DNA from: Puniceicoccales bacterium
GTDB taxonomy: Bacteria; Verrucomicrobiota; Verrucomicrobiia; Opitutales; JAIRKQ01
Direction: 5' to 3'
Length of the DNA: 34,724 bases
Assembly: GCA_031270385.1 (NCBI GenBank)
Contig: JAISXS010000047.1
Span: 1 to 34,724 of the forward strand
Shown: in pieces, positions 13,541 through 23,122 of the stretch
Layout: each line of letters opens with the position of its first letter
Position numbering within the stretch: position 1 is the stretch's first letter
Notes under the pieces: generated by a model
Told to the model about the DNA's origin: nothing
Database searches by the model: none
The model's input: only the letters and a program-made list of their open reading frames with translations
Position numbers and translations under genes: made by a program

Positions 13541-14389
13541 TTAAATGTTCTTAGATATCCCGGACTTCGAAGCGTATTCCCGCTGGATAACTTCCCTGAT
13601 TGTGTCCATGATTGTTTGCACATTTTTTTTAGAAGTACTGTAAGCTTCCTGCATTTCCTTCACATGGCTTAGGGTAAATTCAAAAAATTTCTCGGCTCTT
13701 TTCGCATCGGCGTTTGTAATGCTAGCCTCGTGTCTTAGGTTTGCTGTGGTGATGCTCATCGAAAAGGATACAACGCTCATGACAAAATTTATAATAGTTA
13801 CTACGAGTTTGATGATCTTGACTACCGTGCCTAAGATTTTTCCGGTACTGAGCCCACCTGCGACTCCGCTAAGTCCCGAGGTTACAATATTAACGATGCC
13901 GGTAGCAATTTTCATACATGCCGTTTTTTTGCTGGCTTTGTAGGTAGCATCCGCTTCTTTTATTTTCATTTCGAAGACTGAGGACGCTGCTTTATCTGCC
14001 ACTTTTATTTTCGTTATCATTTCATTGAAACGCGAGTTTCTCTGGTCTGCGGCTGATTCTTCAAGAATGACCATGACAAGAAAAAGGATATCCTCGTAGG
14101 AACATTTCTTGGAATTCGTGGAATCTACATCCAACAGTCGAATGGCACTGTGCAAATCTCCCATTTTAATTGTACCGCTATTCCCGGCTAATTCGAACGT
14201 ACGATCCGTTTGGTTCGGTATCAGTGCCGGATTGTCCAATGCGGAATGCACGGGGGGCACAACATCGTTTGGATCGGCAGTTGATACAATTTTTGCGATT
14301 TCAGCACCTTCTGATGACGGACCACCAATGGTTGGATCTTCGGTGGACGGCTGTGAAGTGCTATCGGAAATGTTTTTTGATTCCGACAT
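13541..14389 (-). CDS. T3SS translocator-like protein, minor/SctB-like candidate (282 aa)
   Basis: Last gene of the translocon operon, with AGGTGA 4 nt before the ATG. The N-terminus is Ser/Thr/Pro-rich (MSESKNISDSTSQPSTEDP). It has the block ILFLVMVILEESAADQRNSRFNEM plus a coiled coil, one long Gly-rich hydrophobic region (ATGIVNIVTSGLSGVAGGL...VVSFSMSITTA) and a C-terminal amphipathic helix. Confidence 0.55.
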   Translation of the reverse strand: MSESKNISDSTSQPSTEDPTIGGPSSEGAEIAKIVSTADPNDVVPPVHSALDNPALIPNQTDRTFELAGNSGTIKMGDLHSAIRLLDVDSTNSKKCSYEDILFLVMVILEESAADQRNSRFNEMITKIKVADKAASSVFEMKIKEADATYKASKKTACMKIATGIVNIVTSGLSGVAGGLSTGKILGTVVKIIKLVVTIINFVMSVVSFSMSITTANLRHEASITNADAKRAEKFFEFTLSHVKEMQEAYSTSKKNVQTIMDTIREVIQREYASKSGISKNI

Positions 14390-14421
14390 ATTTCACCTTG
14401 GTTTCTCCATTTTCGCACTGG

Positions 14422-15957
14422 CTATATATTGTGCGCAATGTCTTTTTTGGATTGAACGAGCTCCCCAATAAGCCTCGATAGATTTTGAATGCTTTTCTCG
14501 CGGCTATCGTCTGCCTTTTTCAGTGATTCCGAAATACCCTGGGAGAGATTGCTCACGGAATTTCTAATACCCTCTGTAAAGCCTTCCAACGACTTTCGCG
14601 AATCAGCTCTGTGTCCCTCGTTAGCCGACGCAAATTTCAAACCACCCCCGACAAGGCCTACTGCGTTTGAGATTATTTCACCTACTGCAGCATTTTTTTT
14701 ATCTATTCTCTGTTGCTTATCGGCCCTTTCACGCCTGTCATTTTGTACCTCCATTTTTTCGGCTGATGCGACAAGTTTGTCAGCCGTTTCATCCATCTTG
14801 ACTTCGAGTGCTTCACGGTTTGATATAACGTCTTCTTCCGTGAGGTCTTTTTCCGAGATCTCTGTGTCAGTTCTCTTCTTCACGCCCTCTTTATTGTTCT
14901 CATCGTTCTCATTTTTCTCTAATCTTTCTTTAGTTGCTGCATTATCTGCATCCTCTACCAATTTATTATCTTCTATATTCTTTTCATCATCTTCTGCCTT
15001 CTCTTTCGTATCCTTCACAACCTCTTTGTCTTCAGTTATATTCTCTTCATGTTCACCCACGTCCTTTTCCCGTCCTTCCACTTCATCCGTCTTTTTATCA
15101 TCTGCATTTATCTTTCCTTCCTCTTTCTCTATCTCCTCTTCGTCTCCATCCGTAGCAACTTCGTTTTTCTCCACCTCATCTTTCGTTTCATTAATTTCCG
15201 TTTCTCTCACCTCATCCCGTGTTTGCTCCACTTTTGCTTGCTCCGTTTTAAGGGTTTCATTTTTCGTCGCGTTCGTTGTTTTCTCTTGCGAGACTTCAGA
15301 AACGTCTGCCCCACTTTCAGCTGTATTTGAGGCGGTTGAACTTGGATCTATTGATGTTGACTTGTCGTCAACACCGGAACTTTTCGAATTGTTTTCTGAC
15401 GTCGCAGACAGCCCAAATGAGACAACACCGCCAACTAGAGCACCTGCTCCCTTGATCAAGTCAGATGTTGCATCGATGTACGCCTTATCTTTATTGGCTT
15501 CAGCGGCTTCGAGGGAAAATCCGTATACAAGCCTCGATAAATCCATGTTCATATTGTTGGCTACTCGCTTGAGCGTCGCCAAAACCTCCCTCCTCTCCTC
15601 TTGGACGTCAATATTCATCATCTCGGCAAATATAATAAGCTCGGCAATACTCATTTTGCTTAAATCCTTCTCGCTTCCGGCCCCAACCAAACTAAGCATG
15701 CTGCAGAGAGATCCATGGATATTCTCGAGGCCCTTATTGCCACTAATATAATCGGGAGAAGAAGGACTAAATATCGCCTCAGGCTGGCTAGGCCCGTTCG
15801 TCTCCTGCGGAACGTCTCTATCAACAACAACACTATCGCCAGTAGGATTCACGTCCCCAGGTTTAGGACTGGTTACGTTATCCGGTCCCTGATTTCCATC
15901 GCTTCCACCGACAGCATACGCGTTACCTTGGCTACCAATACCATCTACATTAGTCAT
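14422..15957 (-). CDS. T3SS translocator-like protein with large acidic insert (511 aa)
   Basis: GGGGGA Shine-Dalgarno upstream and a Gly/Asn/Ser-rich N-terminus. The block IAELIIFAEMMNIDVQEERREVL plus coiled coil is shared with its neighbours. Two Gly-rich hydrophobic segments (GAGALVGGVVSFGLSA and AAVGEIISNAVGLVGGGL) are separated by about 235 residues of E/K/D/T-rich low-complexity sequence. Confidence 0.5.
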   Translation of the reverse strand: MTNVDGIGSQGNAYAVGGSDGNQGPDNVTSPKPGDVNPTGDSVVVDRDVPQETNGPSQPEAIFSPSSPDYISGNKGLENIHGSLCSMLSLVGAGSEKDLSKMSIAELIIFAEMMNIDVQEERREVLATLKRVANNMNMDLSRLVYGFSLEAAEANKDKAYIDATSDLIKGAGALVGGVVSFGLSATSENNSKSSGVDDKSTSIDPSSTASNTAESGADVSEVSQEKTTNATKNETLKTEQAKVEQTRDEVRETEINETKDEVEKNEVATDGDEEEIEKEEGKINADDKKTDEVEGREKDVGEHEENITEDKEVVKDTKEKAEDDEKNIEDNKLVEDADNAATKERLEKNENDENNKEGVKKRTDTEISEKDLTEEDVISNREALEVKMDETADKLVASAEKMEVQNDRRERADKQQRIDKKNAAVGEIISNAVGLVGGGLKFASANEGHRADSRKSLEGFTEGIRNSVSNLSQGISESLKKADDSREKSIQNLSRLIGELVQSKKDIAHNI

Positions 15958-16001
15958 GACATTTATCCCCCAAAATAATTAAAATTACAATTACTTAATT
16001 C

Positions 16002-22479: not shown

Positions 22480-22508
22480 CTTTTTCCTCCAAATTAAAGT
22501 TTTAATAA

Positions 22509-23069
22509 CTAGACTTTTAACCTTCTCACCTTTGGTTTGTACTTTTTCGGTGAAGAGCTTTCTCCTGTTCCAACCGATGAGACATAAGATTGAACCGCCC
22601 CAGGCGTAGCAACCGTTCCCCAAGAAAGAAGTTTCGAGATGTCGCCCATCGTGTTTTTGACAGGACGACGCTCAGCACACGCTAGCGCAAGATCCCACCC
22701 ACCATCCGGCTCCTTTAATCCGATGGAATTGTAAACCCTCTTCTCATGCTCAATGGCAAGCTTCGCAAACTCGTCTAACCCTTTCAGTCGCTTCCCAGCC
22801 TGCTTAATTACGCAATCCGGATCCCCGAGCTCTATGCCGGCCTCTCCAAAAACATTCTGCTGCGTCGCCATCATCCTCCGCATTTCATCCGCCATGGCAT
22901 CATTCTTTTTGACTAGACTATCCATCTCCTTCAAATGGGAATCTATATCCTTATTAACCTCCGCTGGAGTACGCAACCTAGTCATGCCGACCACTGAATT
23001 CGTAGAATTTCCATCTGAAACTGCGTTTGTTTCCTCGCTGCTACGGTTCAACTTCTCATCTTTTTTCAT
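22509..23069 (-). CDS. Hypothetical 186-aa protein, first gene of the translocon operon (LcrG-position)
   Basis: ATG at 23069 (MKKDEKLNRSSEETNAV) with GGTGAG 4 nt upstream. The two upstream in-frame ATGs lie at or before the predicted -10 box, so I discard them. Hydrophilic with predicted helices; I recognise no motif. Confidence 0.55.
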   Translation of the reverse strand: MKKDEKLNRSSEETNAVSDGNSTNSVVGMTRLRTPAEVNKDIDSHLKEMDSLVKKNDAMADEMRRMMATQQNVFGEAGIELGDPDCVIKQAGKRLKGLDEFAKLAIEHEKRVYNSIGLKEPDGGWDLALACAERRPVKNTMGDISKLLSWGTVATPGAVQSYVSSVGTGESSSPKKYKPKVRRLKV

Positions 23070-23094
23070 TGTACTCACCAGTCTTCTGGTGTAC

Positions 23095-23122
23095 ATTCTA
23101 CCCTTCCAAATTTTAATGTCAA
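23095..23122 (-). promoter_or_regulatory. Sigma70-like promoter for the translocon operon
   Basis: The minus strand reads TTGACA (23122-23117), a 16-nt spacer, then TAGAAT (23100-23095). This predicts a start site near 23088, about 19 nt upstream of the 23069 ATG and upstream of its GGTGAG Shine-Dalgarno. Confidence 0.4.

Follow-up and report, generated by a model that had tools for sequence, protein, structure and literature searches.

The 34,724 bp of DNA analysed here, a single entire contig that we call the window, comes from a Puniceicoccales bacterium and contains six closely packed minus-strand genes, designated A to F. In our judgment it is probable, on the sequence evidence, that this locus is an injectisome tip/translocon operon of an uncultured termite-gut lineage of the Puniceicoccales/Opitutales, and that its products act together in the manner proposed below. 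The core of this reading, a tip/translocon locus with an LcrH-type chaperone, had been put forward in an initial annotation of the same DNA; it is supported by the sequence and fold of the chaperone and by weak but in-register matches of the translocator candidates.

Injectisomes, the machines of type III secretion systems (T3SS), are well studied in Proteobacteria and Chlamydiae. For the Verrucomicrobia, the sole mention of a T3SS that we found concerns V. spinosum (PMC3681970), and our search for literature on T3SS in the Puniceicoccales found none. The accessions of the metagenome-assembled genomes (MAGs) considered here, JAIRKQ to JAITRI, lie inside the termite-gut metagenome series JAIRJQ-JAITXW; these MAGs have been treated as putative endosymbionts of gut flagellates, in a group that includes the endonuclear Candidatus Nucleococcus, and the word "secretion" is absent from the paper on these termite-gut Opitutales/Puniceicoccales genomes (PMC11257099).

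Organization of the Operon

The open reading frame (ORF) listing of the window confirmed the six packed minus-strand genes at 13541-23069, in the order and at the sizes initially described (lengths are in amino acids, aa):

23095-23122, minus strand: promoter-like site TTGACA-16 nt-TAGAAT, an 11/12 consensus match
22509-23069, minus strand: gene A, 186 aa from ATG (longest ORF 210 aa, from GTG)
17782-22479, minus strand: gene B, 1565 aa from ATG (longest ORF 1613 aa, from TTG)
17208-17768, minus strand: gene C, 186 aa, class II (LcrH/SycD/IpgC-type) tetratricopeptide repeat (TPR) chaperone
16002-17189, minus strand: gene D, 395 aa, candidate major translocator (SctE-like)
14422-15957, minus strand: gene E, 511 aa, candidate minor translocator (SctB/SseD-like)
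13541-14389, minus strand: gene F, 282 aa, putative lineage-specific duplicate of E, a second SctB-like protein

Consecutive genes are separated by 29, 13, 18, 44 and 32 nt, so that the range of 12-44 nt first given was exact at its upper end while its lower end should read 13. A Shine-Dalgarno sequence had been claimed before every gene; such motifs do precede A (GGTGAG), B (GGAGG), C (GGGAG), E (GGGGGA) and F (AAGGTG), whereas upstream of D there is only a weak GAAAG. The promoter-like site lies directly 5' of A and is the best of its kind within 13300-23400; it sits in a 128-nt divergent spacer common to A and a DUF748-like gene. Promoter-like sites overall are not enriched over shuffled sequence (20 observed vs 15.4 +/- 4.4), and for this reason the single near-consensus promoter of the initial annotation, which is indeed present as a sequence, stays a prediction. 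A search for minus-strand terminator-like hairpins within the operon found none. The six genes are closely spaced and conserved as a unit, with a single strong promoter-like site in front of them.

The Chaperone and the Injectisome Secretin

Gene C provides the firmest identification within the operon. Its modelled structure clearly indicates a class II T3SS TPR chaperone of translocators, and its sequence matches agree with this, although the family match stays under the equivalog cut-off. Its top NCBIfam match is TIGR02552 LcrH_SycD (E=3.4e-21, 75.4 bits; equivalog cut-off 104.8), it also matches SscB, the chaperone model of Salmonella pathogenicity island 2 (SPI-2), and its sequence matches in the Protein Data Bank (PDB) are PcrH, IpgC, SycD and AcrH, with E from 1e-7 to 1e-5. 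An AlphaFold model built on nine homologues (mean predicted confidence, pLDDT, 90.6) has the small, all-helical, three-TPR fold of SycD, IpgC and PcrH. When this model was compared with the PDB by Foldseek, ranks 1-23 were all class II T3SS chaperones (AcrH, IpgC, SycD, PcrH and Scc3), with target-normalised TM-scores of 0.65-0.87, and generic and designed TPR proteins came after them. The class II assignment made initially has thus survived on the sequence and on the fold, the two grounds chosen beforehand for judging it. C is located directly upstream of D and E in all 13 species in which the operon order was found and in the related contigs L021-L023. No conserved copy of the canonical P/VxLxxP chaperone-binding motif occurs in the orthologues of D, E or F.

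The initial annotation had also placed the operon away from any visible basal-body gene, and on this point it was wrong. Approximately 10 kb downstream of the operon the same contig encodes an outer-membrane secretin, with a possible second chaperone gene beside it:

1612-3447, minus strand: sctC, outer-membrane secretin (probable start MKTTRFF at 3447; longest ORF to 3519)
3444-3986, minus strand: 180-aa ORF, weakly indicated as a possible class I (CesT-like) T3SS chaperone

SctC passes the cut-off of TIGR02516 type_III_yscC (E=1.4e-94, 317 bits against 238), contains the Pfam domains Secretin, Secretin_N and T3S_SPI-1_N0, and has InvG and MxiD as its best PDB matches; an injectisome-specific core gene is therefore present in this organism. 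The TGA stop of the 180-aa ORF overlaps the sctC start (ATGA), and its sole Pfam match is PF05932 CesT (E=0.0029, 18.2 bits against a cut-off of 22).

The Hydrophobic Proteins D, E and F

The initial annotation attributed a common hydrophobic block to the three hydrophobic proteins, and this has been borne out: the block reads LFVIYILLIAKREE in D, MSFTELMTLMLMMTYASEEERRR in E and YVDILFLVLLILEELAADQRNSRF in F, it is conserved within each of the three orthologue sets, and a block resembling it, followed by a charged helix, is present in Yersinia YopD. In D a polar N-terminus precedes the block, after which come a coiled coil, two hydrophobic stretches and a C-terminal helix ending in NIVRNF. 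The two stretches (161-215 and 260-313 by hydropathy) have approximately 55 aa each, long enough for a helical hairpin, and the hydropathy pattern is kept in 12 orthologues. The single hydrophobic segment of E (165-186) is rich in Gly, and the protein also contains a long insert, acidic and Lys-rich, and an amphipathic module at its C-terminus; F has a single transmembrane segment (179-218) that is stronger than that of E, and the hydrophobic segments of both proteins are kept in their orthologues. In its two hydrophobic regions, its coiled coils, its lack of a Sec signal and its length (about 350-600 aa being expected) D has the features of an SctE protein, and E and F, with a single hydrophobic segment, a C-terminal amphipathic helix and a position after the SctE-like gene, have those of SctB proteins. 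The D orthologues of L004, L008, L009, L012, L013 and L015 have a Cys-rich N-terminus, MVDCVCNNGSPCSACE...PC..C; this outgroup segment, with 6-7 Cys in some 45 residues, is missing from the D of the window.

Family searches point in the same direction, all of them below curated thresholds. The window D itself has no match to PF04888 SseC, a family matched by 3 of 12 D orthologues (best 6.4e-4) and the top Pfam match of the D consensus (1.6e-3, 18.6 bits vs a gathering threshold of 30.2). The SseC C-terminus is likewise the top Pfam match of the E consensus (8.8e-4) and of the F consensus (3.9e-4), and in each of the three alignments the last 85-100 residues fall onto the very end of the profile. 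The E consensus of 11 orthologues matches NCBIfam translocon_SseD at E=1.6e-7 (31.5 bits, cut-off 130), and the window F matches two SseD models at E of about 0.005 (16 bits). Among 18 T3SS proteins of the Yersinia plasmid pCD1, the D profile scored YopB first, collinear over 230 positions, with a per-comparison E of 4.6e-5 (hmmsearch, database size set to 1); in the Yersinia comparison only the rank order of the hmmsearch scores was used, as weak corroboration. The translocator similarity initially proposed for these membrane proteins is thus upheld by the identity and register of the top matches and is not upheld at the curated cut-offs, since D does not exceed that of PF04888, nor E and F those of the SctB-type (SseD) models. 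Because these cut-offs are not reached, we describe D, E, F and B as proteins that would work like the known components, and not as members of SctE, SctB, SctA or SctF. On this weak but consistent sequence evidence D fits a major translocator and E and F fit minor ones.

The three had been called translocator paralogs, a designation that suits only two of them. Profile alignment with hhalign related F to E at 94% probability and to the outgroup E at 95%, through the C-terminal ~100 columns, whereas D-F reached only 56% and D-E about 1%. The F profile also matches the single E-type gene of L023 over nearly its full length (E=1.3e-19). F was found only in the window and in L001, L002 and L003; the operon of the remaining genomes ends after E, whose orthologues have 308-970 aa and which is the last gene in the outgroups. 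E and F are accordingly, as judged from these alignments, paralogues, F appearing to be a recent lineage-specific duplicate of E; D appears as a distinct two-hairpin protein that has in common with E and F only a C-terminal module of ~85 aa. The restriction of F to the window and its three closest relatives, with all others stopping at E, suggests that the ancestral operon had the canonical two translocators. F seems to have kept the short ancestral form, and the E of the window to have gained its long acidic insert.

The Giant Tip-Slot Protein B and Its Family

An oversized protein in the slot of the tip gene was among the initial claims, and the 1565 aa of B, about five times the normal size, are confirmed; LcrV has 326 aa and PcrV 294 aa (PMC6963986). 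B consists of an N-terminal domain, a variable helical region of ~1,000 aa and a C-terminal tip-like domain. The middle region contains weak internal repeats (355-438 vs 542-637) and a recurring LF(N/D)xxGxL motif. Hydropathy reveals no transmembrane segment in B, and the full-length protein has no significant match in Pfam or NCBIfam. Two parts of its C-terminal domain are distinguished:

18001-18822, minus strand: conserved part of the putative tip-like domain, B aa 1220-1493, 36-52% identity among orthologues
17782-18000, minus strand: needle/tip-like C-terminal helical hairpin module, B aa 1494-1565 plus stop, NIDVxEQ...RxxGDxLSTD...SNIR

The giant is not the singular oddity that it first seemed, although abnormally large it certainly is. 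Its orthologues in 12 related species have 811-1427 aa, and a full HMMER scan with the last 340 residues of B against 1.84 billion representative proteins returned 57 family members, the complete-looking ones ranging from 263 to 2984 aa, together with shorter fragments; every named member is from a Puniceicoccales MAG. Ten members of 263-383 aa are of ordinary tip size, and B is thus one expanded member of a family that has such ordinary members. The ~190-350 aa usual for SctA proteins are far exceeded by the window B and fit the short members. A hidden Markov model of the short members maps onto B aa 20-52, 156-204 and 1220-1565 (E=1.5e-62), which suggests that the window B is the short form plus ~1,000 inserted residues. 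Metagenome scans for short members found none; they were found instead by direct contig look-up. Between the small protein and the chaperone of L021 and of L023 is a short member, of 308 or 369 aa, and immediately upstream are a second small-protein gene and then a 1965-aa family member.

Several arrangements of these genes were observed in the relatives. At 632-8927 of L021, a 172-aa protein and the 1965-aa giant are followed by a 208-aa protein and the 308-aa short form, and at 1-2947 of L023 the tandem pair of small-protein and tip-family genes is likewise duplicated. In L008 (5011-10162) the chaperone is preceded by an 878-aa copy, an 86-aa fragment of a chaperone and a short copy, complete at 348 aa. 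L024 (101-12291) has a 2984-aa member followed by a TPR chaperone of 159 aa that is divergent, by a 706-aa protein to which the precomputed annotation assigns DUF7217 and whose C-terminus, ..REIARNIV, resembles that of D, and by an E-like fragment; from its gene content it looks like a second, more divergent type of translocon-like operon.

The conserved region of aa 1220-1493 comprises a long central helix, LxxHYVAVAVMY...EQIREIEQVNEEIRVNNKMLKAL, and then a mixed region. Best conserved in the family are the last ~72 residues, NIDVxEQ..LT.ISN.Q...R.YGD.LSTD.Q....K..Q..Q..N......Q..KS.GDY.K....NIR. The only Pfam match of the C-terminal consensus is PF09392 T3SS_needle_F (E=4.8e-4, 20.7 bits vs 29.4), an alignment that reaches the end of the profile, and this needle family is also matched by 4 of 14 individual orthologues. 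The top NCBIfam match of the same consensus is translocon_SseB (E=0.005, 16.8 bits vs a cut-off of 155). A 27-sequence profile of the module, searched against 177,635 PDB sequences, had as its top match the PrgI-SipD fusion 3zqb (E=0.0055), with an alignment spanning the PrgI hairpin and the SipD C-terminal helix; after it came eight IpaD entries, full-length PrgI and SipD (E 0.1-2). Needle and tip proteins make up most of this list, and their alignments are in register with the C-termini. Against the 18 pCD1 proteins the C-terminal profile ranked YscF first and LcrV second. The Pfam families of LcrV, IpaD/SipD and EspA gave no match to B. Taken together, these sub-threshold similarities, whose individual E-values do not stand alone, suggest that B ends in a module resembling needle and tip proteins.

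Protein A and the N-Terminal Signals

Protein A has a charged N-terminus, a basic C-terminus (KPKVRRLKV) and no hydrophobic segment, and searches of it against Pfam and NCBIfam gave no significant match. Its orthologues are always directly upstream of a B-family gene. The strict adjacency of the two, and the duplication of the A and B pair as a unit, suggest that A is a dedicated cytoplasmic partner or chaperone of B. Among the 18 Yersinia T3SS proteins its profile scored LcrG first, weakly and through a short C-x-D-x-GLTPE motif, part of which the window A lacks, so that the LcrG similarity is a lead only. The best PDB match of A, a MarR regulator (0.005 over 44 residues), was judged to be due to chance.

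The N-termini of T3SS substrates have a recognizable general character, and we read those of the operon in its light. The first residues of B, D, E and F are rich in S/T/N/Q/G, poor in charges and without a Sec-type signal, and A and C begin with charged sequences, a pattern that fits export of the former four and a cytoplasmic location of the latter two.

Conservation, Source Lineage and Rate of Divergence

The orthologues of the operon were reached through its chaperone. Word-indexed protein searches with B and D returned the query alone, despite the existence of orthologues with 28-45% identity; these were reached via the neighbours of matches to the chaperone C, for which a search found 11 relatives (50-70% identity), the NCBI-named ones all being Puniceicoccales bacterium MAGs. 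For the survey of conservation the contigs encoding relatives of C were read and one genome per species was scanned. The operon order is kept in 13 species-level Puniceicoccales/Opitutales MAGs and in further metagenome contigs; in the 13 MAGs it always runs as a small protein (158-244 aa), a giant (811-1427 aa), the chaperone, and proteins of 366-411 and 308-970 aa. Since it is conserved across these 13 genomes and the further contigs, the arrangement is beyond chance.

Between the window and its closest relatives the identity is 84-89% for GyrB and GyrA, 62-64% for C and no more than 27-45% for A, B, D, E and F; from the contrast with GyrB and GyrA it follows that the operon products evolve much faster than housekeeping proteins. 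Such fast divergence of A, B, D, E and F fits what might be expected of secreted proteins exposed to a host. Horizontal transfer was considered and rejected: the GC content of the operon is close to that of its flanks, and in relatives the operon keeps its synteny with gyrB-gyrA and the DUF748-like gene that diverges from it. A phage, plasmid or flagellar origin found no support in the window, which has no tRNA and encodes an injectisome-type secretin.

Comparison with Known Systems

The Yersinia lcrG-lcrV-lcrH-yopB-yopD cluster, which the initial annotation took as its model, has an identical order of functions, and the chaperone profile matches LcrH at 7e-14; B, however, has no significant similarity to LcrV, nor E and F to YopD. 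As to gene order the model is sound, but the weak matches name SPI-2 proteins instead. In the Salmonella SPI-2 operon sseA-sseB-sscA-sseC-sseD the order is again that of a small partner, an SctA-type protein, a class II chaperone, a major and a minor translocator, and in the weak matches SseB is the counterpart of B, SseC that of D and SseD that of E/F. These weak hits make SPI-2 the apparent best-matching known layout. The differences are nonetheless considerable. SseB has ~200 aa and its NCBIfam model 151 positions, compared with the 1565 aa of B; A has no detectable similarity to SseA; E has the extra paralogue F; all the matches are far under the equivalog cut-offs; and SPI-2 belongs to an enterobacterium, the present locus to a verrucomicrobial, protist-associated lineage.

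The needle and tip proteins themselves resemble B over its end. The C-terminal helix of IpaD/SipD aligns with the last ~70 residues of B, and PrgI aligns with its entire hairpin; B differs from IpaD/SipD/BipD and from PrgI/MxiH in the marginal E-values, in the lack of any match to a Pfam tip family and in its ~1,000 additional residues. EspA and Bsp22 are proteins of ~200 aa. The EPEC EspA (from LEE4, espA-espD-espB) and the Bordetella Bsp22 provide a functional analogy for an elongated B, whose polymerization is a proposal; the searches with B gave no direct sequence match to either. Both belong to the SctA class and extend the needle as a filament or sheath, not as a compact cap (PMC6963986).

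In the chlamydial operons scc2-CT577-copB-copD and scc3-copB2-copD2 a class II chaperone precedes two translocators, as it does here, and the Chlamydiae are similarly a related phylum (PVC superphylum), host-associated and with scattered T3SS genes. C is structurally closer to AcrH, IpgC, SycD and PcrH than to the chlamydial Scc3, which has rank 21 in its Foldseek list. The gene order of the chlamydial translocon operons is different, and to our knowledge they contain no giant tip-slot gene. The present locus differs from all described systems in its host lineage, in having F as a duplicate of E, in its unrelated small partner, and in how large and how variable in size its tip-slot protein is.

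Proposed Mechanism and Alternative Explanations

In the mechanism that we propose, C would hold D, E and F in the bacterial cytoplasm and A would hold B. B would be exported first and would dock at the needle end via its needle/SipD-like C-terminal hairpin, to work there either as an SctA tip or as an EspA/SseB-like filament, with its helical insert of ~1,000 residues projecting outward as a long, fast-evolving extension. The SctE-like D, with the SctB-like E and/or F, would then insert into the host membrane and form the translocation pore. Several observations weigh against this scheme. All the family matches other than those of the chaperone and SctC are under the curated cut-offs (17-31 bits, compared with 29-155), and hhalign against single Yersinia proteins gave nothing significant (probability <=12.5%). 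PDB searches with the full-length D profile, with the profile of the 340-aa C-terminus of B and with A gave no meaningful match. The single-sequence AlphaFold prediction of the B C-terminal 340 aa, at pLDDT 43, is unusable. The survey of injectisome genes spanned the window contig and the 20-kb flanks of relatives only. Finally, the E consensus weakly matches alpha-xenorhabdolysin subunit A (6.9e-4), of a family of pore-forming toxins.

This last match, together with the sub-threshold level of every translocator match and the ability of coiled-coil and hydrophobic composition to yield spurious profile hits, could suggest that the locus has nothing to do with an injectisome, D, E and F being pore-forming toxins of the alpha-helical kind, or membrane proteins, that leave the cell by some other route and are served by a generic TPR protein, with a coincidental sctC nearby. 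We find this very improbable, given that C has its nearest relatives, in sequence and in structure, among the class II chaperones of T3SS, with generic TPR proteins behind them, that for four independent products the T3SS component matched is the one that gene position would predict, that Sec signal peptides are lacking and that sctC lies on the same 35-kb contig. The role of B is where the alternatives are more serious. The translocon operon could be real and B a large secreted effector, adhesin or host-surface binder, with its needle-like C-terminus serving only for export or transient docking and the true tip elsewhere or absent. The similarity of B to tip and needle proteins is limited to ~70 C-terminal residues and remains under cut-offs; a length of 1565 aa in a family spanning 263-2984 aa is unlike any characterised tip protein; and the coexistence of giant and short members in L021 and L023 means that their roles could differ. 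We think it unlikely, albeit with some real chance of being right, for in every genome B is what lies in the tip slot, with the small partner on one side and the class II chaperone on the other, the operon of the window clade offers no other tip candidate, and the short members match the giant over the entire 290-aa C-terminal domain, well beyond the last helix.

In a second view B would itself polymerise, as the subunit of the needle or of an extracellular filament; it would be a protomer of SctF or EspA type that carries a giant surface-exposed insert, and not a pentameric cap. Giant flagellins, in which conserved terminal polymerisation domains surround a hypervariable centre, are a precedent for such a design, and B has conserved N- and C-termini around a variable centre. 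The sole Pfam match of its C-terminal module is to the needle family, the alignment of this module with PrgI runs hairpin to hairpin (profile 3-72 to PrgI 9-80), and the top NCBIfam match, SseB, is an EspA-like sheath/filament protein. Against these points, the C-terminal helix of SipD/IpaD is matched equally well, and the ~290-aa C-terminal domain, with its long helix and mixed region, is closer to a tip protein than to a protomer of ~80 aa; a protomer of this kind strikes us as quite improbable. The injectisome tip/translocon operon remains our preferred reading. Going beyond it, we tentatively suggest, as a possibility that we would not yet call likely, that the B proteins form a new needle-end class, in which a needle/tip-like C-terminal module for docking or polymerisation and a small N-domain flank an expandable helical insert that ranges from essentially absent (in the 263-aa members) to more than 2,500 residues.

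Significance

A conserved translocon operon in a termite-gut lineage would imply that the symbionts inject proteins into their protist hosts, and the locus offers a concrete handle on the interaction between termite-gut Verrucomicrobia and their hosts. The tip-slot family, with its more than tenfold range of sizes, has been annotated only as hypothetical proteins. If members of the B family are indeed located on the needle, the view of tip proteins as compact (20-40 kDa) no longer holds, and the family would constitute a natural series for examining how the architecture of the needle end tolerates very large inserts. Were the suggestion of a new needle-end class to be correct, the family would provide the flagellate-associated Puniceicoccales of termite guts with needle extensions that are long or thick and that diversify rapidly, the injectisome counterpart of the giant flagellins; the length and surface of B would track the protist host or the compartment breached (cytoplasm or nucleus); and the tandem A and B duplications, with the second minor translocator, would give a single bacterium alternative tips and pores. 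The E/F duplication is in addition a fresh case of translocator paralogy in which subfunctionalisation can be studied.

Other Features of the Window

Divergent from the operon, on the plus strand at 23198-24028, is the gene for the DUF748-like membrane protein; its position is kept as far as L006, L016 and L017 (31-43% identity), and because it is kept in such distant relatives the gene may be functionally linked to the operon. The minus strand at 24284-25990 encodes a Ser/Pro-rich protein of 568 aa that has a hydrophobic anchor at its C-terminus and a 32%-identical relative in L002, and the plus strand at 31476-34442 encodes a 988-aa protein with an N-terminal hydrophobic segment. Scans of the Pfam/NCBIfam type gave neither a family assignment; both are possible host-interaction proteins.

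A palindromic intergenic repeat, with the core ATGCTTTTCTCGGGGAAGATGACTATA / TATAGTYRTCTTACTTGAGAAAAGCAT, is present in at least 12-20 copies that are clustered between genes, none of them within the operon. Its units of 30-90 nt are 60-97% identical, it looks REP- or MITE-like from its sequence, and it gives rise to spurious small ORFs ending in ..LLEKSILFDDI. Its locations are:

170-370: palindromic repeat
1195-1510: palindromic repeat
5530-5780: palindromic repeat
7000-7061: palindromic repeat
24054-24280: palindromic repeat
27010-27480: palindromic repeat
28884-28936: palindromic repeat
34542-34611: palindromic repeat

The two ends of the contig (97-128 and 34693-34724) carry a 32-nt inverted match of 91% identity, which is probably a repeat that broke the assembly.

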